Source of the DNA: an uncultured Acidobacteriota bacterium
GTDB lineage: Bacteria > Acidobacteriota > UBA4820 > DSQY01
DNA length: 64,000 bases
NCBI GenBank assembly: GCA_963724125.1
Contig: CAVRTJ010000034.1
Span: 18,237-82,236 of the forward strand
Direction: 5' to 3'
The position numbers and the translations under genes are program-made. Of the stretch, positions 3,909-54,618 are shown one piece after another (position 1 is the first letter of the stretch; each line of letters starts with the position of its first letter). The notes beneath the pieces are model-generated. The model saw only the letters and a program-made list of their open reading frames with translations, was not told the DNA's origin and did not search any database.

Positions 3909-6900
3909 ATGAAACGGGACAGGGCATGTAAGAGGTGGACCTGTGTCTCCGTGATCCTCGTGGCACTGGGGCTGGGGCTCAGCCTCGGTACCCAGGCCCA
4001 GGATTACGGTACGCCCATGGCATGGGGGAACAACGGAGCAGGACAACTTGGCGACGGAACAACCGCCGGCAGTAACCTCGCCGTGCAGACATCGGGTCTC
4101 ACCCACGTTTCCGCGGTCACAGGAGGCGGCCACCACTCGTTGGCACTCCGGGCGGACGGCACCGTCTGGGCCTGGGGAATCAACAATCAGGGGCAACTCG
4201 GCAACGGGACGACGACGGGCTCTACGGTCCCCGTGCAGGTCCTCGGTCTTACAGACATCAAGGCCATCGCGGCAGGGTACAACCATTCTCTCGTCATAGG
4301 GGCCGACGGCACGATCTGGGCCTGGGGCTGTAACAGCAGCGGCCAGCTCGGCACAGGCGACGACACCCTCCGCCTTAGCCCGATTCAGGTTCCGGGCCTC
4401 ACCGAAGTTGTGGCTGTTGCGGCGGGCAAGGAGCACTCCCTCGCCGTCAGGGCGAACGGCACCGTCTGGGCCTGGGGAGCCAACGGTTCCGGGCAGCTCG
4501 GCGATGGGACGATAACCGAAAGGTACGCGCCCGTGCAGGTGACCGGGCTCTCGGAGATCACCGGCGTCGCTGCCGGCAAATACCACTCCCTCGCCGTCAT
4601 GGCCGACGGCACGATCTGGGCCTGGGGCTATAACGCGAGCGGCCAGCTGGGCAACGGCGGCAACATGGACAGCCACGTGCCGGTGCAGGTCTCCGGCCTG
4701 TCGGGCGTCGCGGCCGCAACGGCCGGCGATTCCCATTCCATGGCCCTATCAGGCGACGGTACCGTCTGGACTTGGGGGGCTAACGACAGGGGCCAGCTCG
4801 GCGACGGGACCATGGCCGACAGCAACCTGCCCATGCAGGTTACCGGCCTTACCGGGGTCACCGCCCTCGAGGGTGGTTACTGCCATTCCCTCGCCCTAAA
4901 GACCAACGGGCGGGTCATGGGCTGGGGCGGCAACGATATCGGGCAGCTCGGCGACGGGACGAATACCGACAGGCACGTGCCCGTACAGGTTTCCGGCCTC
5001 GAGGGCGTTACGGCCATCGCTGCGGGCTGGGAGCATTCGCTCTCGGTCAACAACGCGCCGCCGGCCTGGGCATGGGGTCGAAACGACTACGGCCAGCTCG
5101 GCGACTCGGACACGACAGATGCCAGCGTCGCCGTCCAGGTGTCCGGCCTCGTCCTTTCGACCGTAGCGGGGGGATACTTTCACGGTCTCGCACTGGAGCC
5201 CAACGGCATGGCGTGGGCCTGGGGACGAAACATCTACGGACAACTGGGAACCGGCGACTTCATCAATACTTCCTACCCCGTTCCGGTGACGAGCCTCACG
5301 GAAGCCCGGGCCCTGTCGTCGGGCGCGAACCACTCGCTGGCCATAGAGTACGACGGAACCCTCTGGGCGTGGGGGGCCAACGGCAGCGGCCAGCTCGGCG
5401 ACGGGACGCTCGCGGACCGCGCAGTGCCCATAAGGGTTCCTGGGCTGTCGGGCGTTAAGGCCGCCGGCGAAGGCTGGGCCAACACGCTGGCGCTTCTGAG
5501 CGACGGCACAGTGTGGGCGTGGGGAATGAACTCTTCCGGCGAACTCGGCGACGGAACAACCGTCGACAAGACCTCTCCCGTTCAGGTGCCGGGCTTGACC
5601 GGTATCAAGACCATGGGATCGGGCATGGGATTCGGCTTCGCCATCAGGGCCGACGGCACCCTCTGGACGTGGGGGGCTAACGACCACGGTCAGCTCGGCG
5701 ACGGGACGACCACCAACCGCACCTCTCCTATCCAGGTTCCGGGCCTCGTGAACGTTACGGCGGCAGCGGGCGGCCGGTACCATGCGCTGGCCTTGAAGAG
5801 CGACGGTACGGCTTGGACGTGGGGGTCGAACGAGTACGGCCAGCTCGGCCTGGGCGACACAATCGACCGCTCCGGCCCGGTTCAGATCTCGAGCCTCACG
5901 GGCATTGTAGCCATCGCGGCAGGCCGGTATCATTGCCTCGCCCTCCGGGCCGACGGGACGGTATGGGCCTGGGGATACAACTTCTACGGCGGTCTTGGAA
6001 TCGGGACGAGCGGGCCGAACGCGCACAGCTCTGTACCCATTCAGGTTCTCGACGTCGAAGACGCCACGGCCATTTCGGGAGGCGCGTTTCACTCCTTCGC
6101 CATCGCGCCCAGGCCGCCTTGCACGATCACATGTACAGCCACGGCATCGGCCTCCTCCGGCACGGCGCCGCTGAAGGTGTCCTTCACGGCGACGGCCACC
6201 CCGTCGAACTGCACGGGCGATCCGGCGTACGCCTGGGACTTCACGACCGACGGCGCGACCGACGACACCGCGCAGAATCCGGTCCACACCTACGACACAC
6301 CGGGGACCTTCACGTGGACCATGACTGTCACGGCATACGGCGCGATGTGCACCAAGATCGGTACGATCACCGTCACCACCGACGATACGCCCCCCGAAAC
6401 GTCGATGGCGTCGGGCCAGTGCGGGACGACCATCGACTCGACCTCTACGACTTTCTCCTGGGCAGGGACAGACAACGCCACGCCCGCTGGTAGCCTCGTC
6501 TACGCATACCGGCTGGACGGCGATTCATGGTCGGTGTTCGGCCCGGACACGGCCAAAACATACACCGGGCTTACCAACGGAACCCACAGTTTTAGCGTTA
6601 AGGCCAAGGACCTCGCGGGCAACGAAGACCCAAGCCCGGCGACGTGCGCCGTCGAGGTGAATCACGACCCGCCCGTCGTTTCGTTCATGCACAAGGTGGG
6701 CTCGCCCTTCCGGATCAAGGTTATGGGCAGCAACTTGCAGGACGGTATCCAGGTTTTCATCAACGGGGAATTCTGGGGTGATACCAGCAACCGATACCTC
6801 GTCAAGTGGAAGAACACCGGCAAGATCGTCGTGAAGAAGGGCTCGGCCCTAAAGGCTGCCGTGCCCAAGCACACCACGACGACCTTTCGCTTCGTGAACC

Positions 6901-36227: not shown

Positions 36228-37709
36228 TCAGCGCGAGCGGAGCGTCTCTATGCGGCGGATGAACTCTTCGAGGATGAGCCTGTAGAGCCCGTCGCCCAGG
36301 GTCCCATCTTCCACGCCCGCGTCGATGTTGGGGTTGTCGTTGACCTCTATCACGAAAGCCCCCTTGTCCGTCATCTTGACGTCCACACCGTAGAGGCCGT
36401 CTCCGATCAGGTTCGCCGACTTGAGGGCCGCCTCCAGCACCTTTGCAGGCACGTCGTCCACGGGAAGGGACTTGAACCCCCCTTCCGTGAATCGGCCCGA
36501 AGCGCTGTGCTTGACGATCTGCCAGTGGTACTTCGACATGAAGTACTGGCAGGCATAGATGGGTTGGCGCCTCAGGATCCCGATGCGCCAGTCGTATTCG
36601 GTGTACATGAACTCCTGGGCCAGGATAAGGTCCGAATCCGTGAACAGCTTCTTGCAGATGGCCTTCAGTTCGCCGAAGTTGTTGACCTTGTATATCCCTC
36701 TGGAGAACGAGCTGTCCGGGATCTTCAGGACCATCGGATAGGGAATGGACTCCTCGAGCTTCTGCAGCGCCTTCGTTCCGACTTCCTGCAGAATCACCGT
36801 CTTGGGGGTGGGGACCTTGTGGGCCGCGAGCAACTCGGCCAGGTAGACCTTGTTGGTGCACTTGACGATGGAATCGGGATCGTCGATGACGGCCATGCCC
36901 TCGTTCTCGGCCTTCTTCGCGAAACGGTAGGTGTAGTGTTCGATTTCGGTAGTCTCTCTAATGAAGAGCGCATCATACTCGGCCAGCTTCGAGTAGTCCC
37001 TCCGCTCGATCAGGTCCACGCTGATACCGAGTTTCTCCCCCGCTTTGACGAACTTCTGAAGGGCTCGCTTGTTGGACGGGGGCAGGCGCTCCGCCGGGTT
37101 GTACAGAACGGCCAGGTCGTAACGCATGTGGTTCTTCGTCCTGGGCCGGTGCCATGGTTTGCTGCGGTGGTATTCGAACGCTTCGATGAACTTCTCTTCC
37201 TGCTCCTGCGACAGTCCGTGCAGGTGCGCGGCTTTGATGGCCGAGATGTGCCAATTGCCCTGCAGGCGGAATTCGACCTTGAGGAGTGGGCACTGGAAAA
37301 GGTCGAATATCTGGCGGGCCAGCTCCGGCAACTGCCCCTGCCTGCATCGTCCGAAAAAAATGTCCATCTCGAAGGCGTTGCGTTGGTCGAGGCCCAGACT
37401 TTTTTTCAGGCCCTTTTGAACGGTCTCGTCCAGATCTTCGACGTTGAGACTGTAAATGGCTTTGCTGCTCAGATCGTTGATCGTCCTGACGGTGGGAATG
37501 ACCTTGTGGCGGCGCGCCTGCGCCAGCAGAGAACAGTAGTACCCGATTGTGAGATAGCCGTAGCTGCGGCACATGTTGACGATCTTCGCGTCCCGGAGCT
37601 TGAAATACTGTGACTGGTCCAGGTAGTCCTTTGCCAGAACCACTGTGACATCGGGATAAGAGGTCTTCCAGTCCTTCAGGTTTTCGACCAAGACGATCTG
37701 CTGAGACAT
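36228..37709 (-). CDS. RimK-like ATP-grasp ligase with ~220-aa N-terminal extension domain
   Basis: C-terminal half carries RimK-type ATP-grasp motifs (PMVLKIPDSSFSRGIYKV, LILAQEFMYTEYDWRIGIL, GLYGVDVKMTDKGAFVIEVNDNP). The N-terminal domain is of unassigned function. Start 10 nt downstream of the GNAT/C39 gene stop. Confidence 0.85.
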   Translation of the reverse strand: MSQQIVLVENLKDWKTSYPDVTVVLAKDYLDQSQYFKLRDAKIVNMCRSYGYLTIGYYCSLLAQARRHKVIPTVRTINDLSSKAIYSLNVEDLDETVQKGLKKSLGLDQRNAFEMDIFFGRCRQGQLPELARQIFDLFQCPLLKVEFRLQGNWHISAIKAAHLHGLSQEQEEKFIEAFEYHRSKPWHRPRTKNHMRYDLAVLYNPAERLPPSNKRALQKFVKAGEKLGISVDLIERRDYSKLAEYDALFIRETTEIEHYTYRFAKKAENEGMAVIDDPDSIVKCTNKVYLAELLAAHKVPTPKTVILQEVGTKALQKLEESIPYPMVLKIPDSSFSRGIYKVNNFGELKAICKKLFTDSDLILAQEFMYTEYDWRIGILRRQPIYACQYFMSKYHWQIVKHSASGRFTEGGFKSLPVDDVPAKVLEAALKSANLIGDGLYGVDVKMTDKGAFVIEVNDNPNIDAGVEDGTLGDGLYRLILEEFIRRIETLRSR

Positions 37710-37718
37710 CTTGACTCC

Positions 37719-38915
37719 TCACCACTCGGCATTGTGCGCTGCGCCGCCGCCCTTCAATCCCGGCCCTTGTTCCGCCGTACGCCACCACCGCGACCACGTT
37801 TTCGGGCCGGTCCGCCGGAAGGACGCCCTTCCGATAAACAATGCGGCCTTCAGCCCTGCTTTGCCATACCTCGCCATGCGTTCGAAGTCCTTCTTCAAGA
37901 TGGGCATGTTGATGCTGTCGGTGGCCGACTTGTGCGCCTCCAGGTCCACAAAGGAATCGTGAACGTAGATAAAGCGATCATCGAGACCGGTCACCACGAC
38001 CCAGTGAGGGGAGTTCTCGTGGTATATCCTGCGGGAGCTGATAAGTACAAGCGGGATGAGTTTCGCCTCGACGCGGTCTTGTATGTCGGACATTCCAGGC
38101 GTCCCGTAGTGCAGCGCAATGGGATGGTTCCGAATCTCTTCGAGCATGTCTTCCTGAACCAGGCGAATGACTTCCTTCTTTTCCTCGCTGCGGACGCTCC
38201 TGGTGAACAGGGCGCCTTCATCGTTGATGAAGATCTCCACGCTGAAACCGCGATGGAAGGCCGACAGCGCAAGACCGTACGGACCACAGCCGCCATGGCC
38301 AGCGGTCATGAAAATGCTGGTCGACTCGCGCCATATTCTCAGTTCGAGTTTTCTGTTCAGGTCCACCTGCGGATCGAGCGCCTTCATGGCCATCATCAGA
38401 GCCGAAGGCCCGCACGTGAAATCCAACGTCTGCATATAGAAAGGCACGCTCACGAGGTTCGGTTCGAGGTGGGGAATGAGGAACTTCTCGAATCGCAGGG
38501 CCGCCTGATGGTCCTCGTAGTAATCCTCGATTACGCCGAAACGACGGTAGCCGCTCTTGTCGTAGAGCCGGATGGCAGCCTCGTTATCGCTCCTCACCTC
38601 GAGCCTCATGCTGACGCAATCGTGCTCTCTCGCGGCCTCTTCCGAAGCGCCGAGCAGCACGGCACCGATCCCGAGGCCGCGGCTCGCCGGATCAACCGCC
38701 ACCGAGTACAGGCGTGCCAGGGACGTTCCGGTGTTGAACAGGAGCATGGCGTAGCCGCACATCCTGCCGCCTTCCAAGGCAACGAGCGTGAGTGCGTTTG
38801 CCCGGCTGAGAAGATATCGAAAATTCCGCCGCGATAAACGGTCCAGCTCGAAACAGCGCGCTTCCAAAGCGACCAGTCCTTCCAGATCATCGAGTCCGCC
38901 CCGCCGTATGTCCAT
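37719..38915 (-). CDS. GNAT N-acetyltransferase fused to a papain-like (C39-type) peptidase domain
   Basis: N-terminal GNAT pattern (LYSVAVDPASRGLGIG...MRLEVRSDNEAAIRLYDKSGYRRFG); C-terminal domain with candidate catalytic Cys in LDFTCGPSALMMA and His in SPHWVVVTG. Start placed at the internal ATG (MDIRRGG). Confidence 0.75.
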   Translation of the reverse strand: MDIRRGGLDDLEGLVALEARCFELDRLSRRNFRYLLSRANALTLVALEGGRMCGYAMLLFNTGTSLARLYSVAVDPASRGLGIGAVLLGASEEAAREHDCVSMRLEVRSDNEAAIRLYDKSGYRRFGVIEDYYEDHQAALRFEKFLIPHLEPNLVSVPFYMQTLDFTCGPSALMMAMKALDPQVDLNRKLELRIWRESTSIFMTAGHGGCGPYGLALSAFHRGFSVEIFINDEGALFTRSVRSEEKKEVIRLVQEDMLEEIRNHPIALHYGTPGMSDIQDRVEAKLIPLVLISSRRIYHENSPHWVVVTGLDDRFIYVHDSFVDLEAHKSATDSINMPILKKDFERMARYGKAGLKAALFIGRASFRRTGPKTWSRWWRTAEQGPGLKGGGAAHNAEW

Positions 38916-39138
38916 TACCGTACTCCAGCGGCGCCGCACGACGCTTGCAGCCGGCGGCGCCTTCGCGATCTATTATGAGCGCATGGAGCAAAAAATAAAG
39001 CCCCGCGAAGCGCGCGCATATCCCGTCTCGGCGCACCCGCAAGTCGGTTAGAGACGATTCGCGGCCAAGGCACTATAATGGGACCGCATCAGTTTCTGGG
39101 CCGCCGAGCGGCGTCCGCAAACGTAGATACATTCATGA

Positions 39139-39624: not shown

Positions 39625-39942
39625 AAGAACGGTGCGTCAGAACCGGACCAATCGTCAGGAAGCGGCCACAGAAGGGATGGCTCGGTCCGATCGGGATGCG
39701 TAACCTTCTGGTTACACCCATGTTCGCAAATGGAAGCACCAAGCGCTCCATAATCTATGCAAGAACTTGAACTTTTCTTTGATTCCGCATTATTTATTAT
39801 AGTTTTTCTGCACATTGTGTCGAACGCATACCCTAGTGGCAGGCTTCTTGCTTTTGAGATCTCACTCAAGAGACTGCCGATCTTGTATGGAGCATTCGAG
39901 ATTGAGTTCGACTGACTCGAGAAGCATCGGGCGGAGGCGAAG

Positions 39943-42423
39943 TTGGTTGGAAAGATCACAAAGAAATTCCTCGAAGTCGTTCTGAGGCACTTGCCCCACG
40001 CGGTATGCGTGCTGGCCGAGGACGGGCGGTTACGCTACGCGAACGACGCGGCGATTTCTGTGCTCGGCTGCGAGCAAAGCGACATGGCCGGCATTGGATT
40101 TTTTCGAGCGGGTGCATCCCGACGACGTGTCCAACCTGAAGGCCCGTCTTGAACGGGCGGAAGACGGGCAGTACGCGTCGTGTTCGGTCATCATCCGGGT
40201 CCTCCAAGGGCGGCGACCGGTGGACCACCATGGAGGCCTTCGTCACACATGCGGACGGCGAGGCCGGTTCTCCTCTCCTCCTGATCTACTTGAGCGATAC
40301 GTCCGGGAGGCTCGAAACGGAGGGGCGCCTCAAGAAGCTCTCGAGCGCCGTCGAGCATATAGATGAATCCGTCGTGATCACCAACAGGGATGGCGTCATC
40401 GAATACGTGAACAACGCCTTCGAGAGAACGACCGGCTACACAAAGGACGAGGTCATCGGCAAGACCCCAGCCATCCTGAAATCCGGCAAACACGACCAGG
40501 CCTTTTACAAGTGGATGTGGGACACGATCCTGTCGGGCGAATCCTTCCACGGCACCGTCATCAACAAGAGAAAAGACGGCACGCTCTATTATGAGGAAAA
40601 AACGATTTCACCCCTTATTGATGCGGATGGAGTCGTGACCCACCACGTGGCGACCGGCATGGACGTCACACACAAGAAACTCGCCGAAGAGCGTCTCAGG
40701 GCGGGAGTCGAACGCTATGCACTCTCCGTGAGAGGCGCCAACGACGGGCTGTGGGACTGGGATTTCCGGACGGGCCACATCCACCTTTCCGACCGCTGGA
40801 AAACCATGCTGGGCTTCTCGAGGGACGAAGTTGGCAGTACCATCGACGAGTGGTTCCGTCTCGTCCATCCAGACGACCTCGCCGAATTGAAAACGCTCAT
40901 GAAGGCCCACATCGAAGGTACGACCTCCCACTTCGAGCACGAACACCGGATGCGCCACAAGGACGGAGGGTACTGCTGGGTCCTGTCCCGCGGGCTGGTC
41001 GTGCGGGACGACGACGCCAAGGCTTACAGGATGGCGGGCTCACAGACGGACATTACGGACAGAAAGATGGCCGAGGAGCAGCTTCAGCACGACGCACTCC
41101 ACGACGCCCTGACGGGGCTTCCCAACCGGACCCTTTTCATGGACAGGCTCGGTCTGGCCATCGCCAGGGCCAAGCGGAGCGAGACGTGCCACTTTGCGGT
41201 CATGTTCATGGACCTCGATCGCTTCAAGATCATCAACGACAGCCTCGGCCACCTGGCCGGGGACCAGTTGCTCATCGAGCTGGCCAAGCAGGGTCAAGGG
41301 GTGTCTTCGAGCATCGGATACGGTTGCCCGCCTGGGCGGAGACGAATTCGCCATGCTTCTCGAAAACGCACAGAGCGACAAAGAGATAACGCTCTTCGCC
41401 GAGAGGGTTCAGGCCTGTATCGCCGAGCCCTTCCGGATCGGATCGCGCGACGTGTTCACGTCCGCGAGTATCGGAATTGCCCAATACGAGGACGGGTACG
41501 AGCGGCCGGAGGACATGGTCCGGGACGCCGACACCGCCATGTACCACGCCAAGAATCACGGGAGGGCCCACTATACGGTCTTCTCGCCCAGCATGCGTTC
41601 GAGGGCGCTCCAGATCCTCGACATGGAAACGGGCCTGAGGCGGGCCATAGAATCCCAGCAACTGACGGTCCATTACCAGCCCATCGTGTCCCTGAAGTCC
41701 GGCCGAATAGCCGGATTCGAGGCCCTCTCCCGCTGGCCGCACCCCGAGCGCGGCTTCATCTCGCCGGTGGAATTCATTCCCCTTGCGGAGGAAACAGGCC
41801 TCATTAACACCATCGGCCTGCTCGTTCTGCGAAAGGCCTGCCTCTATCTCAAGGCCATCCAGGGCCGGTTCCGTACCCATCCGCCGCTTACCATGAGCGT
41901 GAACCTCTCGGGCATCCAGTTCATGCGCCCGGAACTCCTGGGCCAGCTGGACCTCATGCTGAGGGAGTACGGGTTGGACCCCCGGACCCTCAAGCTGGAG
42001 ATCACCGAAAGCGTCATCATCGACCACGCCGAGTACGCGCGCGAAATGATCGACCAGATGAAGGCCCAGAATATTCGCCTAAGCATCGACGACTTCGGAA
42101 CGGGGTATTCTTCCCTCCGCAGCCTCAGGCAGTACCCCATCGACACGGTCAAGATAGATCAGTCCTTCGTCGCCACCATGTGCGAGAACGAAGAGAGCCT
42201 CGAGATCGTTCGGACCACCGTATCCATGGCCCACAAGCTCCGAATGGAGGTGATTGCGGAGGGCGTGGAAGCGAAGAAGCAGATGGACCTCCTTGCATCC
42301 ATGGACTGCGACTTCGGACAGGGCTTTTACTTCGCCCGGCCGATGGAACAGGATGCCGCCGACGCCATGCTGGCGCGCCAGAGCCATTGGTGGCAGGGGG
42401 AACCGATCGACGCTGACGCCTGA
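39943..42423 (+). CDS. Multi-PAS GGDEF-EAL cyclic-di-GMP signalling protein; at least three apparent frameshifts (~40090, ~40210, ~41295)
   Basis: PAS segments, GGDEF domain (LTGLPNRTLF...FMDLDRFKIINDSLGH...ARLGGDEFAML with GGDEF intact) and EAL domain (QPIVSL...EALSRWPHPERG...IDDFGTGYSSL...KIDQSFV). Sense passes through four frames. TTG start at 39943 with SD GGAGG. Confidence 0.75.
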
Positions 42424-42702
42424 GAGCGGCGGTCGGCGCGGCGCGGGCCACGCCGGGCAGGCAGCACCCGTCCCGGGCACGCCCCGCGGCCGCCCTCTGG
42501 GTCAAATACCCTGAATCAATACGCGAACAACAGGGAAAGCAACTTTCTCGCCGGTCCTGCGTATGGGCACAATGAGTACCATGAGCAGCCGGTCTGTGGG
42601 GACAGAGCCGGCGTGTCTCTTTCACTGGGTTGGGCAGGGGAAACGCTGTGCCAGCGGCTCTCCAAGGGTATTTGTATCCTCACTGAAAAGGAGGAAAAAG
42701 GA

Positions 42703-44586
42703 ATGAGGGAATTGACTCGGAAGTGCTGTACGGTTCTCGCGGCCACTGTCATGGCGGCCGCCTCCGTTCTGGCGGCCGACAGGGCCGATATTCCGGAGAA
42801 ATACACCTGGAACCTCGCCGACATCTACCCGTCCGTCACGGCCTGGTCCCAGGCCAGGGCCGACGTCGAGAAAAAGATCGGCGAACTCACTCCCTTCAGG
42901 GGGCACATGGGTGACTCGGGCCAGACGCTCCTCAAGGCCCTCCGGACGCAGGAACGCCTCGAAAAGGAACTCTACCGGGTCTACGCCTACGCCAGCATGC
43001 TCAGCGACCAGGACACGAGGAATTCAGAGCACATGGCCATGAAGCAGAGCGTGCAGGAACTCGCGACGACCTACGGTGCGGCCGCCTCGTTCATCGAACC
43101 GGAAATCCTCTCGCTGGACGCCGACACCGTCCGGGGATTCATGGCGGCAGAGCCGGGCCTGTCCACCTATAAACCTTACCTGGACAATATCCTCCGCATG
43201 AAAGCGCACACGCTGACCCCGGACGAGGAACAGATCGTAGCTCGGGCGGGCGCCGTGGCCGTCTCCCCCGGTTCGATTTACGGGATCTTCACGGCCGCCG
43301 ACATGCCTCGTCCTGAAATCACCCTCTCGACCGGGGAGAAGGTCCGCCTCGACGCCGCGGGCTACGCCAAGTTCCGTTCTTCGAGCAGCCGTGAGGACCG
43401 CGATGCGGTCTTCAAGGCCTTCTGGAAGAGCTACGACGAATTCAAGCGCACCCTGGGCATGACCCTCTACTCGCACGTGAAGGCCCACATCTTCAACAAG
43501 GACGTCCGGCACTACGACAGTTCCCTTGCCGCGTCCCTGGATGCCAACAACATTCCGACGGCGGTCTACACACAGCTCATCGCGGACGTCCACCAGAACC
43601 TGCCCACCCTGCACCGCTATCTCAAACTCCGCAAGCGCATGATGGGCGTCGACCGCCTGAGGTACGAGGACCTCTACGCGCCTATCGTGAAGGAAGTCGA
43701 CATTTCCTACACGCCTGACCAGGCCATGGCCCTCGTCCTCGAGGCCGTATCCCCTCTCGGCCCGGCCTACGGGAGGGAACTCAAGACCGGTTTCGAGAGC
43801 AGGTGGATCGACTTCTACCCGAGCACCGGCAAGAGATCCGGCGCCTACAGCAGCGGCGCGGTCTACGACGTCCATCCCTATCAACTCCTGAACTTCAACG
43901 GCCGCTACGACGACGTTTCCACGCTGGCCCACGAGTCCGGCCACTCCATGCACAGCTACCTTTCCAACAAGAGCCAGACCTTCGCCAACGCGCACTATGC
44001 GACCTTTGTGGCCGAGGTGGCGTCGACCCTCAACGAAAACCTCCTGTTCCATTACACGATGGACCACACGAAGGACGACGCCACCAGGCTCTACATCCTG
44101 GGAGAACACCTCGAGGGCTACAGGCAGACGCTCTTCCGCCAGACCCTGTTCGCCGAGTTCGAGATGCGCATCCACGAGATGGCCGAGAAGGGACAGCCGC
44201 TCACGGGCGATTCCATGAGCGGGCTCTATCTGGACCTGCTCAGGAAGTACTACGGCCACGACGAGGGCGTCTGCACGATCGACGAGCTGTACGGCAACGA
44301 ATGGGCCTACATACCCCATTTCTACCGGAACTTCTACGTCTACCAGTACGCCACCAGCCTCACGGCCTCCACCGCGCTGGCCAACCGGATTCGTTCCGAA
44401 ATGCCTGCCACCGCAGCCCGCGACGCTTACCTGAAGATGCTCTCCTCGGGATCGACAAGCTATCCGGTGGACCTGCTCAAGGACGCAGGGGTTGACATGA
44501 CCACGAGCGCACCGTTCGACGAGGCCATCAAGGACATGAACGAGACCATGGATCAAATCGAGGCGATTCTGGACGAGAAGGCCTGA
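42703..44586 (+). CDS. pepF: Oligoendopeptidase F-like M3B metallopeptidase, secreted
   Basis: Signal peptide MRELTRKCCTVLAATVMAAASVLA; zinc motif HExxH in LAHESGHSMHSY; M3B-like length and conservation. SD AAGGAGGAAAAAGG before the ATG at 42703. Confidence 0.85.
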   Translation: MRELTRKCCTVLAATVMAAASVLAADRADIPEKYTWNLADIYPSVTAWSQARADVEKKIGELTPFRGHMGDSGQTLLKALRTQERLEKELYRVYAYASMLSDQDTRNSEHMAMKQSVQELATTYGAAASFIEPEILSLDADTVRGFMAAEPGLSTYKPYLDNILRMKAHTLTPDEEQIVARAGAVAVSPGSIYGIFTAADMPRPEITLSTGEKVRLDAAGYAKFRSSSSREDRDAVFKAFWKSYDEFKRTLGMTLYSHVKAHIFNKDVRHYDSSLAASLDANNIPTAVYTQLIADVHQNLPTLHRYLKLRKRMMGVDRLRYEDLYAPIVKEVDISYTPDQAMALVLEAVSPLGPAYGRELKTGFESRWIDFYPSTGKRSGAYSSGAVYDVHPYQLLNFNGRYDDVSTLAHESGHSMHSYLSNKSQTFANAHYATFVAEVASTLNENLLFHYTMDHTKDDATRLYILGEHLEGYRQTLFRQTLFAEFEMRIHEMAEKGQPLTGDSMSGLYLDLLRKYYGHDEGVCTIDELYGNEWAYIPHFYRNFYVYQYATSLTASTALANRIRSEMPATAARDAYLKMLSSGSTSYPVDLLKDAGVDMTTSAPFDEAIKDMNETMDQIEAILDEKA

Positions 44587-44936: not shown

Positions 44937-45431
44937 ATGAACGAGCGACTTCGGCGATTCCTCTTTCCTTCGATCACACCCGCCTTCCTGATCCGGGTGG
45001 TCTTGGTGGCGGTCTGTGCCTACGTCTTCTTCGGATTTGTCTGCACCCCTTTCGTGGTCAGGGGACGAAGCATGGTGCCGACTTACCACGACGGGGCTTT
45101 TGACTTTCTCTGGAAACCGAGGTTCCTGTTTTCCGGCCCGGAGCGCGGAGACGTAGTCGCCATAAGCCTTGCGGGTGACAGCGTGGTCTACCTGAAGCGC
45201 GTGGTTGCCTTGGGCGGCGATACAGTTTCCTTCAAGGAAGGCGTCCTTTACGTGGACGGCAAGGCGGTAGATGAACCCTACGTCAGGGGCCCGTGTCACT
45301 GGAACCTCCCCCCGCGCAAAGTTGAACCCGGCAGGGTCTACGTCGTGGGCGACAATAGGAGCATGCCGATGGAACAGCACGACTTCGGACAGGTCTCGGT
45401 CAGGCGCATCGTCGGGAGCCCGGTATGGTGA
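44937..45431 (+). CDS. lepB: Signal peptidase I (S26 family), compact ~165-aa form
   Basis: N-terminal anchor helix, catalytic Ser motif RGRSMVPT, Lys motif YLKRVVALGGD, and VYVVGDNRSMPMEQHDFG box. Confidence 0.8.
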   Translation: MNERLRRFLFPSITPAFLIRVVLVAVCAYVFFGFVCTPFVVRGRSMVPTYHDGAFDFLWKPRFLFSGPERGDVVAISLAGDSVVYLKRVVALGGDTVSFKEGVLYVDGKAVDEPYVRGPCHWNLPPRKVEPGRVYVVGDNRSMPMEQHDFGQVSVRRIVGSPVW

Positions 45432-45922
45432 CCTGGAAACGCCTCGGCGCCGTTCTGGCCGTGATTCTTGCGGCTTGGGCGATCTACTACTTCTTCCCAT
45501 CACGCACGCGGCAGGTCAAGCGCCGTTTCAAGGCCATATCGGAATGGGTGGACAAAACCGGCCCGGAGGGCAACCTGACGATGGCCAGGGAGGCCTCGGA
45601 GGCGGCCGATTTCTTCGCGCCCCAGTGCACGTGGGATGCGCAGTCCTACGACCTCAACGGCTCCTTCACGCCTCGCGACGCCGCGCGCTATTACTTCGCG
45701 GGCCGCGAGCGTTTTTCAAGTCTTTCGCTCAAGTTCTACGATGTGGGGGTCGGCTTTCCCGAGAAGCACAAGGCGGACGTCACGGCGACGGCCCGGATTA
45801 CGGGTACGACGAGGGAAGGCGAGAAGGTGAGCGAAACGCACGAAGTCCAATGCTCCCTCAGGAAGACCGACGGCACGTGGCGACTGACCCACGTGACCGT
45901 CGTGCAGGTGCTCCAGAGATAA
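45425..45922 (+). CDS. Hypothetical membrane-anchored protein, translationally coupled to lepB
   Basis: Start overlaps the lepB stop by 7 nt; N-terminal TM helix (LGAVLAVILAAWAIYYFF) followed by a ~130-aa soluble domain of unassigned family. Confidence 0.55.
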   Translation: MVTWKRLGAVLAVILAAWAIYYFFPSRTRQVKRRFKAISEWVDKTGPEGNLTMAREASEAADFFAPQCTWDAQSYDLNGSFTPRDAARYYFAGRERFSSLSLKFYDVGVGFPEKHKADVTATARITGTTREGEKVSETHEVQCSLRKTDGTWRLTHVTVVQVLQR

Positions 45923-46014
45923 TAGAATCGGATTTCCCGGTAATGCTACCTGTTCCCGGGGTTGAGGTGTGCTACGACGAGGGCGCGCGAGCCGGTGAAT
46001 CCTCTCACAGCCCG

Positions 46015-46440
46015 TCAGTAAGCGATGGGCGGATCCTTCGACGCGCTCTGAAAGGAAAGCGCAAGGACGACGTTGTCGTCCTTGATGGTGCTGTACGTGA
46101 CGACGGCGTCCACGTACCCGTTCGAAAATGTGCACACGACGTGTATGTGCCACTCGATGCCGTCCACTTCCGTGGCCTTCACCTCGGAGCCCTGGAAGGG
46201 ACCGAACCGGTCCAGGAGAGACTGCCACTCCCTCTGGAGCTTCTCCGCCGTCAGGGTCTTTGCCAGTTCCGGCGAAAACCTGGCCACGGCCTGGTCGTAG
46301 GTGCCGGCACTGATCAGACTCACGACGTAGCTCGCCTCGTCCGTAGGCGCCGCACCCAGCGCGTCGCCCGAGCCGAGGTACTGCGCGGGCGCCACCAGGC
46401 AGACGGACATGAGCAGGGCCAGGATCAGAAGCTTCTTCAT
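46015..46440 (-). CDS. Hypothetical secreted protein or lipoprotein of unassigned family
   Basis: Signal peptide MKKLLILALLMSVCLVAPAQ, then a ~120-aa domain (EKLQREWQSLLDRFGPFQGSEVKATEVDGIEWHIHVVCTF). No family recognised with confidence. Confidence 0.55.
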   Translation of the reverse strand: MKKLLILALLMSVCLVAPAQYLGSGDALGAAPTDEASYVVSLISAGTYDQAVARFSPELAKTLTAEKLQREWQSLLDRFGPFQGSEVKATEVDGIEWHIHVVCTFSNGYVDAVVTYSTIKDDNVVLALSFQSASKDPPIAY

Positions 46441-46494
46441 GATAGGCGTCTCCTTGATGCGGCCCGGCCCACACATGGGCCGGATACCGGAATG

Positions 46495-47145
46495 CTATCG
46501 CCTGTGCCTTCCCGCGGCCCCCGCGTGCCCGCCCCTGGAGGGCATCGGGGACGGCATGGGCATGGGCATCGGCCTGGGGCTGAAGCGGGGGCGGCCGCGC
46601 GGCACACGCACGGGAGGCGCCGTGTTCACCGGCGGGCGCCTTCGGTGACGGACGCGGTCGGCCGAGGAACCGCCCCTGCGAGGATTCTCGTTCCGGATGA
46701 CGACGGGCTTCGGAGCCGGATGCGAGTGCGGGTGCCCGTGCCGGGAACGATGCCGGTACATCCATGGATCAGGCAGAAAACCCCGGTAGAGGCTGTACCA
46801 ACCCGTCCAGAGGTACATGCCGCCGTAGTAGCCGTACCAGTTGTACGGGTTGCTCCAGCCGTACCAGTCGTACCAGCCGCCACCCAACATCCAGTTCATG
46901 TACGACTGCGGCCCCCATCCCGGCCAGTCCCAGGGCGCCCACTCCGCGCTGAAATAGTCGGGCGTCCAGTCGTATCCGTACCAGTTCCCGCAGTTCCATG
47001 CCGAAACCGGGCCTCCCGCGGATACGGTCATGACCGAGAAAGGTCGGACGGGGAAAACGGGCTCGGCCGCCGAGTGCGAGACCGGCACGGCGAGGCACAC
47101 TATTGCGAGGGTCGCGGCGACCAGGATTGCCTTGTGCTTCATCAT
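46495..47145 (-). CDS. Secreted Trp/Tyr/Gly-rich low-complexity protein with Pro/Arg/His-rich basic tail
   Basis: ATG at 47145 with SD GGGAGG; signal peptide MMKHKAILVAATLAIVCLAVPVSHSAAEP; mature region is dominated by W, Y and G (WNCGNWYGYDWTPDYF...WYDWYGWSNPYNWYGYYGGMYLWTGWY), then a basic tail with PMPMPMPSPMP. No family recognised; the C-terminal extent could be affected by an indel. Confidence 0.5.
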   Translation of the reverse strand: MMKHKAILVAATLAIVCLAVPVSHSAAEPVFPVRPFSVMTVSAGGPVSAWNCGNWYGYDWTPDYFSAEWAPWDWPGWGPQSYMNWMLGGGWYDWYGWSNPYNWYGYYGGMYLWTGWYSLYRGFLPDPWMYRHRSRHGHPHSHPAPKPVVIRNENPRRGGSSADRVRHRRRPPVNTAPPVRVPRGRPRFSPRPMPMPMPSPMPSRGGHAGAAGRHRR

Positions 47146-47544
47146 TTCAAACCTCCCAAGCGCGGGTTTCATGGCATATCCCCTTCTCTCCGCGGCCTGG
47201 AGGCCGCATGATCTGAGCGTCCCTGGACTCGATCCGATGACGACGCAACACATCATGCAAGCCCGCTGCCAATGACAATATAGGGTGCAAACCCGCCGCG
47301 TGCACGGGCTTCGCGCGGCTGCCGGGTCCCGGCCTGTTCTCGACCTCGTATTTAGTCCGAAAAACCGGACACTCTTGCGGCGGCCGGTGCGATGACCCGG
47401 CGATCGACGGAACACGGGCCTTAAGTGAGGCGTTCTTCGAAGACCTCGCTCCACCCGTCTTCGGCGCGTCGCGTAAGGCGGGAAAAGTTTTCAGGAGCTT
47501 CCCTTCCCCCGCCTTCCGGTTCCGAGATTCAAAAGTTTCCGCCC

Positions 47545-48511
47545 TTACTTCATACGCTTCAGGTAGCGGTAGAGCTCCGAGTCCGTCGAAAGGATCATGA
47601 CGCCTTTACCATCCATCGTCTTCCCATAGGTTTTTAGCGTTTCGACGAAACGGTAGAGGTTCGGGTCCTGCTGATAGGCCTCGGCGTAGATCTTCGTGGA
47701 CTGCGCTTCCCCGTCGCCGAGGATTTCCTGCGCCTTCCGATAGGCCTCCGACTGGATGCGCTTGGACTCCTCCGTGACCTGCCCGGCAATCTCGGCCTTC
47801 TTGCCCTGCCCGAGCGCCCTGTATTTTTCCGCGATCCTCAGCTGCTGGCTGATCATCCGGTCGTAGACCTTGCGCAAGCACCTTCTGGGTGTAGTCGAGG
47901 CGCTTGATCTCCAGATCCACGAGGTCTATCCCGAGGTTGAGCTCCTTAAGGCGCTTCTTTGCCGCGTTCGTGATTTCCGTTGTCAGTTCTTCCCGCAGTC
48001 CCCTCACGGGCTCCTGGGCATCCTTGGAGTCCGAGCCGCCCGACATGCGGCCCTCGGATGCCTCGATGGCCTCCTCCCCCAGGTCCATGTGCCTGTTCGA
48101 GGATCGAACGACTTCGAGAAGCGTATGCGCCGATAGAGTGTCCCTCACGAGTCCGTCGAGAATGTCGTCGAGCCGACCCTGGCCGCCCTCCTGGTTGGTC
48201 ACCTTCTTGTAGAAGGTCAGGGCGTTCGAAATGCGCCACCTGGCGAAGGAGTCCACGAAAATGAACTTGGAGTCCTTGGTCGGGATCACTTCGGGATCGC
48301 CGTCCCACTCCAATATCCGCTTGTCAAAATAGTGGACATCCTGTACGAGCGGGATCTTCCAGTGCAGACCGGCTTGCGTGACCGGCTGCCCCACCGGGGA
48401 GCCGAGCTGGACGACGACCGCCTGCTCGTACTCCGGGACGGTGAAGAGGAACATCTTGCCCAGGATTATGAGGACGACCACGAGGACGACGCCCGCAATG
48501 ATCTTTCTCAT
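47545..48511 (-). CDS. hflC: Protease modulator HflC (SPFH/band-7); apparent frameshift near 47875-47885
   Basis: N-terminal TM helix plus SPFH domain in the frame of ORF 47606-48511, continuing after DYTQKV in the frame of ORF 47545-47877 (KVYDRMISQQLRIAEKY...). ATG overlaps the hflK stop (ATGA) with SD GGAGG. Confidence 0.8.
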
Positions 48512-52379: not shown

Positions 52380-54474
52380 CTACTTGGCCGCCGCCGTGAG
52401 TTCCCCGGCGACCCGGCTTGCGCCGTACAGTTTGTTCAGCGCTTGGAGAATGGCGGGCGTATCCACCGCCACGCATCGCGCGACCTTTTCTGAATACACG
52501 AAGGTGTTGGGATTGCTCTGTGGGTTTCCGTCGAAAACCAGTCCCACCAGTTTGCCTTCCCTATCGACGATCGGGCTGCCCGAATTGCCGCCCGTGATAT
52601 CTCCCGTGCACACGAAGTCCATGGGCGTCTTGAGGTCGAGTTCGTCCCGCCGCAGTTCTTCCATCTTGCTGAGCTGGAAGTCTCCCCTGTTGTCGAAGGA
52701 ATAGGCACGGTTATAAAGGCCGTAGAAGGTCGTTTTGTACGGCACTTCACTCGTGTCGAAGGCGTAGCCTTTCACGACGCCGAAAGCCAGCCGGAGCGTA
52801 CCCGTCGCGTCGGGATACACGTCATCGCCGTACACTGCGAACTGCGCATTGGCGATCTGCGTCAAGGCCGGCTGAACAACGGCCTCCACATGGTCTTTCA
52901 CGGCTCTGTGCACGCGCCTGAGAGTCGGATCCATAAGCCGGACAAAAGCGATGAGCGGATCCTTGCACGATTTCACGGCGGCACCCTTGCTCACGAGAAG
53001 GGAAGCGCGGTAGGATGCGTCGTCCAGCCGCGTTCCTCCCATCACTTCCTCGGCCCGCCGGGCCGGCGTCTTCCCGTCAAGAAGCGCTTTCACATATGCG
53101 TTCACGGCGCCGAGCTTGTCCCGCAATACCGTCAGGTCGTAGGCGAGAAGGGCCGCATCCATGCCCTTGTAATAGGGCCGATCGGCCTTGAGGCGCCGCA
53201 TGAGACCCGGGATCTGGGCGTCGTGGTAACCATCCAGCCGTTGGCCGTCAGGCTTGTTCGCTTCTTCTGAATACCGAAGGATTCTCAGCGCGACCCCGGT
53301 CAGTCCATACGCACCGGGGGCCCTGCCTTCGTAGGTTAATTCCTTGAAGTGCTCCCGTTCCCAGTTCACGGATTTCTCGATCTGTTTCCAGGCATTCTCG
53401 TAGTGTGTCAGTTCGGGTTCCGGCGATGGCGTCCCGGAGATTCTTCTCCTGCCGTGCTTTCTTCGCCATCAATGCGGGATTCTTGAGGCCGTCGTATTCG
53501 CCCGTCAGGGCCTTGATGCTGTTGTGGACGAAGAAGATGATCGACTGGGCTTCCTGTGCCTGTTCGGGGCCCTTCTTGCTATAGACGGTCAACACTTCGT
53601 CCATCCCCTTGAGCCTTTCGAGAATGGCCGGATAGCTCACATCTCTGAAATATTCGAGCTGGGCCAGCGTGTCCAGTCGGTCCGTCCTTCCCGGGTGGCC
53701 CGAAACGAAGATCGGCATGCCGTCCGTGACGCCCGCCGGGTCCACCTTCAAGTAGTCCGGCGTATGCGCGGGCTTGCCGTTTTCGTAGACGCGGAGGAAG
53801 CTGAAGTCCAGGTCGTACCGGGGATAGTAGAAATTGTCCGCGTCGCCGCCGAAGTAGGCCGCCTTTTCTTCCGGCGCCATAACGATGCGCACATCGGTGT
53901 ACTCCTTGTAGCGGTAGAGCATGTAGCGGGCCCCGCCGTAGAGCTTGACGACGTTTCCGCGCAGACCCGTCTCTTCCCGGCAGGCCTTCTCCATGTTCGC
54001 GATCTTCGCCTCGCGCGCCTGCTGCGCCTGCACCGCCGTATCTCCGGCCTTGACGGCGGAATCCACCTCGTCGGTGACGTCCTCCATGGAACGCAGCACT
54101 TCGATCATGGCGCCCGGCACCATGAGTTCATCGGCCTGTGACCTGGCGTAGAACCCGTCGTCCACGTAGTTATGCTCGGGCGTAGAGAGCTGCTGGAGAT
54201 ACATGCGTGCCACGTGATGGTTCGTCAGGATAAGGCCGTCGGGGGATACGAACGACCCGCTGCCGCCCCCGATCCCGACGGACGACAGGCGGAGGTGGTC
54301 GAGCCACGCCTGCGAAGGCGTGAATCCGTAGCGTTTCTGGATGAGCTTAGTGGGGGGGTGGCTGTAGGTCCACATGCCCTCGTCGGCGCGCGACGCCGTC
54401 GACAAGCCGAACGCGCACGCAGCGGCCACCGCAAGTGCTGCAAAACTCCTTAGGACATTTCTCTGATGGGTCAT
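52380..54474 (-). CDS. S46-family dipeptidyl-peptidase (DPP7/DPP11-like serine peptidase), secreted; apparent frameshift near ~53400
   Basis: Signal peptide, then N-terminal S46 signature DEGMWTYSHPP...GSGSFVSPDGLILTNHHV (catalytic His) in the frame of ORF 53248-54549; C-terminal catalytic Ser region CTGDITGGNSGSPIVDREGKLVGLVFDGN in the frame of ORF 52380-53369. SD AGGAGG before the ATG at 54474. Confidence 0.8.
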
Positions 54475-54618
54475 GATGCCTCCTGAATGTATGCTGGACA
54501 CAAAAATAGCGAAGAGAGATATACGCGGGTGACGCGGACTTTGTTTCAACCGTCTTTCCGATCACTCCGGGGTTTGGCACAGGTCATGCTGTCCCGTCGT
54601 GAATCGACGGGTGCGGGC

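Follow-up and report, generated by a model that had tools for sequence, protein, structure and literature searches.

An orphan family of exported tryptophan-rich proteins with an arginine-rich tail in uncultured Acidobacteriota

A 64,000-nucleotide stretch of DNA from an uncultured Acidobacteriota bacterium (contig CAVRTJ010000034.1, positions 18,237 to 82,236; assembly GCA_963724125.1), referred to here as the window, carries at positions 46495 to 47145 of the minus strand an open reading frame (ORF) for a preprotein in which a Trp/Tyr/Gly-rich region is followed by an Arg/Pro/His-rich tail. Comparison with its homologs indicates that this ORF, hereafter the W-rich gene, is a functional, selectively maintained, and lineage-restricted gene. 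Exhaustive searching confirmed that its product, the W-rich protein, constitutes an orphan family. We tentatively read the protein, with a probability of roughly 0.3 and by analogy, as a self-associating, polyanion-binding envelope or matrix/adhesive protein that would cohere through Arg-aromatic contacts. An earlier description made from the sequence (the original prediction) had recognized the ORF and its composition; new here are a sigma-54-type element with an upstream palindrome, a probable operon with a DUF3887 gene, variation in copy number and length, and a PRGRP core in the tail.

Coding status and selective constraint

Translation of 46495 to 47145 on the minus strand gave a protein of 216 amino acids (aa), ending at a TAG stop codon (46495-46497) and containing all of the motifs quoted in the original prediction (WYGY, WYDWYGW, YNWYGYYGG, and PMPMPMPSPMP). 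The Shine-Dalgarno sequence GGGAGG (47152-47157, minus strand) lies 7 nt before the ATG, with AAGGAGG or GGGAGG aligned at this position in the orthologs. The G+C content at third codon positions (GC3) of the W-rich gene is 0.85, compared with 0.74 to 0.86 for the surrounding genes, and the W-rich frame is the only one that is open in all five homologous loci. Using codon-aware alignments, it was found that substitutions at codon positions 1, 2, and 3 numbered 41, 42, and 106 against locus L003 and 73, 65, and 106 against locus L001, that the ratio of nonsynonymous to synonymous substitution rates (dN/dS) was 0.18 to 0.37, and that the length of every indel was a multiple of three. Both halves of the protein are constrained, with dN/dS values of 0.15 to 0.35 for the aromatic block and 0.27 to 0.32 for the tail. 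Compared with a close strain whose contig (L004) is approximately 95% identical to the window at the DNA level, the W-rich gene differs in length only by in-frame indels of 27 nt and 3 nt.

The restriction of the W-rich gene to in-frame indels is of weight because the same window contains 1-nt frameshifts in neighboring genes. Relative to L004, 1-nt insertions split hflC (at approximately 47875, leaving the overlapping ORFs 47606-48511 and 47545-47877, both on the minus strand), break the 3' end of hflK (at approximately 48627), and split a PAS-GGDEF-EAL gene (at approximately 41288, leaving ORFs 40149-41807 and 41194-42423 on the plus strand); these are either assembly errors or recent pseudogenes. 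An S46 peptidase ORF (53248-54549, minus strand) aligns with no more than the first half of its Pfam profile (positions 1 to 343 of 698). The 1-nt indels, together with the long antisense ORFs that are common in the window, would favor a spurious W-rich ORF or a frameshift artifact of a GC-rich genome, with the real gene, if any, being the 646-aa ORF at 45271-47211 on the plus strand, but this explanation is refuted: the antisense frame is interrupted by stops in L001 and L011, the sites that change most slowly fall at its third codon positions, it runs through three other well-supported genes, and it is the sense frame that stays open in five loci under purifying selection.

Among possible starts, an upstream GTG that would extend the protein to 319 aa was rejected. 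A further candidate, the in-frame ATG upstream at 47172, is possible but is not kept in L001 or in the paralogous copy of L004 (L004-A), and it has no conserved Shine-Dalgarno sequence. The original prediction had staked itself on the aromatic-rich frame being real and accompanied by expression signals; the frame proved to be conserved and under purifying selection, with a conserved promoter-like element (described below) as well as the Shine-Dalgarno sequence in front of it.

Distribution of the family

To the original prediction, the protein matched no recognized family, and this held throughout. There was no match in Pfam for the whole protein (E ≤ 1), for its isolated blocks (E ≤ 10 for the aromatic block), or for its paralogs, none for the W-rich protein in NCBIfam or PADLOC, and nothing in a PDB profile search, in which the best E value of 1.9 was at chance level. 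When 1.84 billion cluster representatives were searched exhaustively with a HMMER profile, three matched, namely, the protein itself, a 194-aa paralog (P0007), and a 214-aa relative (P0008) that is 41% identical to it. One locus each was identified among 185,579 species genomes and among 241 million metagenome records, both from the same strain group, and a six-frame search with a hidden Markov model (HMM) found no second copy in the window. The family consists of six sequences in three 50%-identity clusters, to which word-indexed, HMM, genome, and metagenome searches added none; the homologs share 94, 70, 50, 47, and 41% identity with the W-rich protein. All members come from metagenome-assembled genomes (MAGs) of uncultured Thermoanaerobaculia (Acidobacteriota), and a literature search returned nothing relevant on comparable bacterial Trp/Gly-rich exported proteins or on Thermoanaerobaculia biology. 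Within the broad class of exported, low-complexity proteins rich in aromatic residues and Gly, the W-rich protein represents a new sequence family.

The family changes quickly. Between the window and L011 the W-rich protein retains 46% identity, while its neighbors retain 73 to 80%, and it therefore diverges much faster than they do. The close strain carries an additional copy, the paralog P0007 (L004 4936-5520, plus strand), which has its own palindrome and -24/-12 region. Next to it, at approximately 5521-5660 on the minus strand, is a truncated remnant of the gene for a 170-aa secreted protein that follows family member P0003 in L001. The window lacks approximately 1 kb of this paralog and remnant DNA, between 47415 and 47550, which points to a recent rearrangement or deletion at the locus. 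Both the copy number and the length of the W-rich gene vary between near-identical strains.

Two-block organization of the protein

The mature protein is approximately 189 aa (22 kDa), and the W+Y fraction of its ORF is the highest among window ORFs of at least 150 aa. Residues 44 to 130 (87 residues) contain 15 W, 14 Y, and 15 G (17, 16, and 17%) and have an isoelectric point of 4.05, while residues 131 to 216 (86 residues) contain 20 R, 18 P, and 8 H (23, 21, and 9%) and have a charge of +19.5, in agreement with the aromatic/Gly-rich region and basic Pro/Arg/His tail that had been described. The acidic N-block as a whole (residues 28 to 130; 46756-47064, minus strand) is 32% W, Y, and F and 15% G, with a net charge of -5. 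Orthologs with the same bias had been proposed as worth seeking, and the two-block composition was found in all six sequences, down to 41% identity: the N-block contains 22 to 34% W+Y+F and has a net charge of -6 to +1, while the tail contains 20 to 25% R+K, 16 to 21% P, 6 to 15% H, and at most 5% aromatic residues and has a net charge of +15 to +20. The label "low-complexity" is apt for the extreme composition but not as a full description, as positionally conserved motifs are present in both the aromatic half and the tail.

Within the N-block, the core motif GGPVSAWNCGNWYGYDWTPDYFSAEWAPWDWP (residues 44 to 75; 46921-47016, minus strand) has many invariant columns and a dN/dS of 0.14 to 0.33. 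The columns conserved across the family read GGPVxAWxCGxWxGxxWxPDYFSAEWxPW, including the single invariant Cys (Cys52), and are followed by a WTGWY...Y motif and, in the tail, by a His cluster and then PKPV. The motif under the strongest constraint is WTGWYSLYRGFLPDPWMY (residues 113 to 130; 46756-46809, minus strand), with a dN/dS of 0.03 to 0.05 in three comparisons. Length varies in an aromatic segment (46830-46868, minus strand) containing a 12-nt direct repeat, ACTGGTACGGCT (46857-46868 and 46830-46841). The 27-nt in-frame indel (46842-46868) is flanked by this repeat and is missing from the 95%-identical strain. Family members P0004 and P0005 are 208 aa long, and P0007 lacks approximately 35 residues in the middle of the aromatic block.

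The polycationic tail (residues 131 to 216; 46498-46755, minus strand; net charge of approximately +19) contains the His cluster HGHPHSHP, PKPV, HRRRPPV, RVPRGRP, PRP, and a C-terminal GRHRR. PRGRP (residues 182 to 186; 46588-46602, minus strand), which is invariant in five of the six members, is identical to the AT-hook core; in RVPRGRPRF (residues 180 to 188) the R-G-R-P sequence has basic flanks, again in five of six members. The Pfam AT_hook profile had no match in the W-rich protein, and PRGRP, a motif noticed post hoc, arises in 1.8% of composition-preserving shuffles of the tail. We regard it as an AT-hook-like, candidate DNA-binding core and treat it as a pointer rather than a finding. 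The Met-Pro repeats were discarded as a core copper-binding feature, as the Met residues are not conserved and only one is invariant among the close members.

AlphaFold2 models had mean pLDDT (predicted local distance difference test) scores of 36.5 and 36.4 with alignments of four and six sequences, respectively, and the sole helix spans residues 2 to 19, within the signal peptide. This low confidence would fit disorder, although it comes from shallow alignments.

Signal peptide and export

Residues 1 to 27 (47065-47145, minus strand) form a predicted Sec-type signal peptide with a charged n-region (MMKHK), a 15-residue hydrophobic core (AILVAATLAIVCLAV), Pro21, and SHSAA, after which (at Ala27) cleavage is predicted. 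As in preproteins of the Sec/signal peptidase I pathway, judged by inspection, the n-region is charged, the hydrophobic region falls within 10 to 15 residues, and the residues at -3 and -1 are small; all six sequences of the family have Ala at -1. These features indicate that the product of the W-rich gene is an exported protein. The ORF, ribosome-binding site, and signal peptide of the original prediction thus stand, from the translation, the position of GGGAGG, and inspection of the N terminus. P0007 and P0003 share an almost identical signal peptide.

Other routes were considered and rejected. For a lipoprotein processed by signal peptidase II, a lipobox ([LVI][ASTVI][GAS]C closing the hydrophobic region) is absent: the candidate AIVC has Val at -1, and its Cys is absent from P0003, P0007, and P0008. 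A twin-arginine motif, as in Tat signals, was absent on inspection. With respect to PEP-CTERM or other C-terminal sorting, the C terminus ends in GRHRR but has no preceding hydrophobic helix, and NCBIfam returned no match.

Promoter region and leader

The sequence upstream of the W-rich gene strongly suggests a sigma-54-type promoter with an upstream activator site. A -24/-12 element, TGGCAGCGGGCTTGCA (47256-47271, minus strand), lies 126 nt upstream of the ATG with the exact GG-N10-GC spacing and fits the sigma-54 consensus TGGCAC-N5-TTGCW. The pattern TGGCA-N6-TTGCW has two matches in the window, compared with 0.14 expected, and its sole occurrences across the 15 fetched loci were in front of family members and at the second site of the window. 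GG-N10-GC elements with altered spacers precede the gene in L003 (TGGCAGAGGACTTGCA) and L001 (TGGCATACAGCTTGCT) as well as the paralog of the close strain, L004-A (CGGCATACGGCTTGCT). A palindrome, GTCCG-N6-CGGAC (47355-47370), is located 92 nt upstream of the -24 GG and is a candidate site for an enhancer-binding protein. No other exact copy of the palindrome occurs in the window, and in the relatives it reads TGTCCG...CGGACA. Across all five upstream regions the arms do not change, the spacer varies, and the distance to the -24 GG is 92 to 94 nt, with the second distance of this promoter geometry at 125 to 129 nt; the palindrome thereby lies within the approximately 80 to 150 nt typical of sigma-54 upstream activator sites. 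No sigma-70-like promoter was found upstream of the W-rich gene. The palindrome was also considered as a terminator of hflC and rejected, as it travels with the promoters of both paralogs and in the window is 175 nt from the hflC stop.

The leader contains a hairpin, GCGGCC-TCCA-GGCCGC (47192-47207, minus strand), that is kept in L003 and in the B copy of L004 but not in L001; Rfam had no match in the leader or anywhere in the window. The second sigma-54-type element of the window, TGGCAGGCTTCTTGCT (39837-39852, plus strand), is in AT-rich intergenic DNA and precedes the PAS-GGDEF-EAL gene (cyclic di-GMP turnover) by approximately 100 nt, counted from the probable start of that gene, and it is conserved in L009 (15266-15281, minus strand).

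Gene neighborhood

The W-rich gene is followed 51 nt downstream, on the same strand, by a gene for a secreted DUF3887 protein (46015-46443, minus strand; Pfam PF13026, E = 3.6e-10) that has its own Shine-Dalgarno sequence, GGAGA. DUF3887 has an NTF2-like fold and is noncatalytic and usually secreted or lipid anchored (PMC3924330). The pairing was also identified in L003, L004-8, and L010/L011, with gaps of 37 to 51 nt, and the DUF3887 variant of this locus has a distribution as narrow as that of the W-rich gene. No terminator was found between the two genes; terminator-like matches were at chance level, and one was inside the DUF3887 coding sequence. The association of the two genes is firm, and they are probably cotranscribed. 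A hairpin, CCGGCCCA-TGTG-TGGGCCGG (46464-46483, minus strand), lies between the W-rich stop and the DUF3887 start in the window and L004; it was rejected as a functional element, being absent from L003 and L011.

This arrangement corrects the statement that the W-rich gene is convergent to a hypothetical secreted protein, as the DUF3887 gene is codirectional and the convergence is with a pair of genes on the plus strand (44937-45922). These encode a signal peptidase I (44937-45431), which is indeed compact as first described (164 aa) and matches the bacterial-type model TIGR02227, and a membrane-anchored SnoaL_4-like protein with an NTF2 fold (45425-45922). The 7-nt overlap of the two genes, suggesting translational coupling, was also observed in L011 (4513-5498), L013 (4513-5498), and L014 (1540-2525). 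We know of no described link between the signal peptidase I and SnoaL_4-like families. In L013 and L014, from other Acidobacteriota, the pair occurs without W-rich or DUF3887 genes, and the link of the peptidase to the W-rich gene, as a dedicated peptidase, is therefore weak; the pair is an older one that is independent of the W-rich gene.

The four-gene block is kept in L011 (MAG GCA_975851195) despite different flanks on both sides, with GH57 and sedolisin-PKD genes there and hflKC and PepF genes in the window. The same MAG also has a lone P0003 copy (L001) beside hflKC, without DUF3887. In four loci (the window, L003, L004, and L001), hflKC is immediately followed by a W-rich copy.

A different peptidase is encoded near each of the three member-bearing loci: an M3 oligoendopeptidase F with an N-terminal hydrophobic, signal-like segment in the window (42613-44586, plus strand), a sedolisin with PKD domains in L011 (1208-4072, minus strand), and an M13 peptidase in L001 (9486-10694, plus strand). 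This may be coincidence or a hint of processing of the Pro-rich tail. Elsewhere in the window (36228-38939, minus strand), a RimK-like ATP-grasp (RLAN) gene is beside a fusion of a GNAT acetyltransferase with a Peptidase_C39-like DUF3335 domain, a pair with a possible role in peptide modification and unrelated to the W-rich gene.

Proposed function

The W-rich gene is probably transcribed from the sigma-54-type -24/-12 promoter upon activation by an enhancer-binding protein whose gene would lie outside the window and whose binding site would be the palindrome approximately 93 nt upstream, and the transcript probably runs on into the secreted NTF2-like (DUF3887) gene. In the mechanism proposed for the protein, signal peptidase I would remove the signal peptide after export, and the mature protein would be a largely disordered, self-associating component of the envelope or of an extracellular matrix or adhesive. 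Its Arg-rich tail, with the AT-hook-like PRGRP, would bind polyanions such as acidic polysaccharide, lipopolysaccharide, or extracellular DNA, and would pair with the acidic Trp/Tyr block of neighboring molecules through cation-pi and electrostatic contacts, and the outcome would be a coat or condensate that is cohesive. For the NTF2-like partner, the role envisaged is to bind the conserved aromatic motif or to act as its chaperone. Fast divergence, repeat-mediated change in length, and gain and loss of paralogs between strains were counted in favor of a structural or surface type of evolution. This mechanism is the weakest step of the explanation.

Several observations weigh against this reading. 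The argument for a matrix, adhesion, or phase separation draws on composition and on general knowledge of Tyr/Trp-Arg contacts, with no homology link, and the strongly conserved motifs (dN/dS of 0.03) suggest a specific partner or fold over generic stickiness. The low confidence of AlphaFold2 may come merely from an alignment of four to six sequences. The wider surroundings of the gene are ordinary chromosomal and housekeeping genes, and no outer membrane export route, polysaccharide genes, or biofilm genes were found linked to it. With regard to the promoter, TAGC replaces TTGC in the element of the W-rich copy of the 95%-identical strain, and no obvious -24/-12 element is present upstream of the P0008 copy. 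Neither a GAFTGA-type activator nor an RpoN box was found in the 64-kb window or the fetched loci, and for this reason dependence on sigma-54 can only be inferred. The adhesive, amyloid-like, or matrix character first suggested for the protein is an analogy from composition, and AlphaFold2 gave neither a beta-rich nor another confident fold.

The best surviving alternative, although we consider it unlikely, is a new folded domain with a specific ligand, for example, an aromatic block that forms a module with aromatic platforms for binding carbohydrate or cell wall and that the basic tail anchors; the apparent disorder would then be an artifact of shallow alignments. Known cell-wall-binding modules bind choline or sugars through aromatic-rich repeats. 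The positionally conserved W, G, P, and C residues, the dN/dS of 0.03 to 0.19 in two motifs, and the four to six sequences available to AlphaFold2 fit such a domain. However, the CW_binding_1 and YXWGXW repeat profiles of Pfam had no match (E ≤ 1 for the whole protein; E ≤ 10 for the isolated aromatic block), nor did the block match a carbohydrate-binding module at the same threshold; deletions of 9 and approximately 35 residues are accommodated in the middle of the block, and no regular secondary structure is predicted.

Somewhat less probable is an antimicrobial or membrane-active exported protein, with the cotranscribed DUF3887 protein as an immunity factor or chaperone. The Trp/Tyr block would enter membrane interfaces and the Arg/Pro tail would bind anionic lipids or intracellular targets. 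With 29 W/Y in 87 residues and a tail of approximately +19, the protein may be likened to Trp-rich peptides, such as indolicidin, tritrpticin, and puroindoline, and to Pro/Arg-rich peptides, such as Bac7 and PR-39. Its evolution faster than that of its neighbors, the gain and loss of paralogs between strains, its tight pairing with a small secreted protein of equally narrow distribution, and the secreted peptidases near three loci, which could process it, would all be in keeping with this role. Against these stand its length of 189 aa, far larger than such peptides, the lack of a DUF3887 partner for paralog P0003 (L001), and a dN/dS that is well below 1 throughout, with no sign of diversifying selection; moreover, no lysis, ATP-binding cassette, or other outer-membrane-crossing export system is linked to the gene, and PADLOC and Pfam returned no toxin or bacteriocin match.

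We give equally low credence to a sigma-54-induced periplasmic protein for envelope stress or metal handling, ZraP- or Psp-like, in which the His cluster and Met-Pro repeats would bind metal beside HflKC at the inner membrane. In Escherichia coli, periplasmic ZraP and the psp operon are sigma-54 dependent, and the sigma-54-type promoter with its upstream activator site would suit a protein of this kind, as would the four copies directly downstream of hflKC and the His-rich stretch in every member (HGHPHSHP, SHAHP, or, in P0008, HHHHRHH). Yet Pfam and NCBIfam showed no similarity to the LTXXQ/CpxP/Spy/ZraP families and none to metal-binding families, the only helix predicted is in the signal peptide, the Met-Pro repeats show no conservation, and the conserved Trp-rich block is left unexplained. 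The most divergent copy, P0008, is not beside hflKC, and the adjacency of the others may be simple shared ancestry.

A distinctly improbable, more specific form of the matrix reading is an exported condensate or adhesive scaffold, in which the Trp/Tyr block and the Arg/Pro tail would coacervate on the cell surface, PRGRP would capture extracellular DNA or other polyanions, a sigma-54 activator would switch production on, and the NTF2-like partner would keep the protein soluble in transit. In a bolder variant, the Trp/Tyr matrix would be redox active or cross-linkable, and the lineage would be one of metal reducers.

Implications

Should the cohesive role proposed for the W-rich protein be correct, uncultured Acidobacteriota would provide a compact, easily synthesized, natural Trp/Arg two-block protein with self-assembling or adhesive properties, of relevance to biofilm and matrix biology, extracellular protein phase separation, and bio-inspired adhesives; a condensate scaffold would be a prokaryotic, extracellular counterpart of the Tyr/Arg grammar of phase separation. 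The immediate impact is modest, as the family is tiny, comes from few MAGs, and has an inferred function. Whatever that function is, the result is a validated orphan family of six sequences with conserved motifs under purifying selection. To define a regulon, Thermoanaerobaculia genomes can now be scanned for the pair of sigma-54 promoter and activator site, and the widespread DUF3887 NTF2-like domain gains a candidate protein partner.

Comparison with known systems

Among functional amyloids (CsgA, TasA, and FapC), there was no Pfam or NCBIfam match to the W-rich protein, and no csgBEFG, tapA, or fapA-F genes were found as neighbors. The locus bears a likeness to tapA-sipW-tasA of Bacillus subtilis, a matrix protein system with a dedicated signal peptidase, in that a gene for a putative matrix protein is at most approximately 1 kb from a small signal peptidase I gene, within a four-gene block present in two loci. 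In contrast to that system, the peptidase here is of the bacterial type (TIGR02227), not the SipW/ER (endoplasmic reticulum) type, its gene is on the other strand, and homology to TasA is lacking. A dedicated system of the SipW type was rejected on the type and strand of the peptidase and on the occurrence of its pair with the SnoaL-like gene where the W-rich gene is absent.

The exported product, the -24/-12 promoter, and the palindromic activator site approximately 90 to 100 nt away recall zraP of E. coli and pilA of Pseudomonas and Geobacter, although the W-rich protein has no homology to ZraP or pilins. With HMGA, Myxococcus CarD, and Lsr2, whose AT-hook/RGR motifs bind DNA in the minor groove, it shares the PRGRP core in a basic, Pro-rich context, but the known AT-hook proteins are intracellular, whereas the W-rich protein is exported and has a single PRGRP copy. 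Similarly, the PRP/RPR Pro/Arg and Trp-rich segments of Bac7, PR-39, and indolicidin have counterparts in the W-rich protein, but those peptides are short and from animals, whereas the W-rich protein is bacterial, has 189 aa, and includes an aromatic block that is acidic.

The sulfur globule envelope proteins SgpA, SgpB, and SgpC of purple sulfur bacteria and eukaryotic Gly/Tyr-rich structural proteins, such as cuticle proteins and the Gly-rich cell wall proteins of plants, are, like the W-rich protein, small, exported, dominated by Gly and aromatic residues, and lineage restricted, and they are thought to be purely structural. They consist of Gly/Tyr repeats and, unlike the W-rich protein, have neither Trp enrichment nor a polycationic Pro/Arg tail; the W-rich locus, for its part, has no sulfur oxidation context, in contrast to Sgp. 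The mussel foot proteins, the His-rich proteins of squid beak, and the FUS-type Tyr/Arg sticker proteins cohere or coacervate through aromatic-cation contacts, and the W-rich protein resembles them in being rich in aromatic, Gly, and basic/His residues and in its predicted disorder. Those proteins are eukaryotic, are unrelated in sequence, and use Tyr, 3,4-dihydroxyphenylalanine (DOPA), Lys, and His, whereas the W-rich protein would use Trp and Arg, with its aromatic and cationic residues segregated into two blocks.

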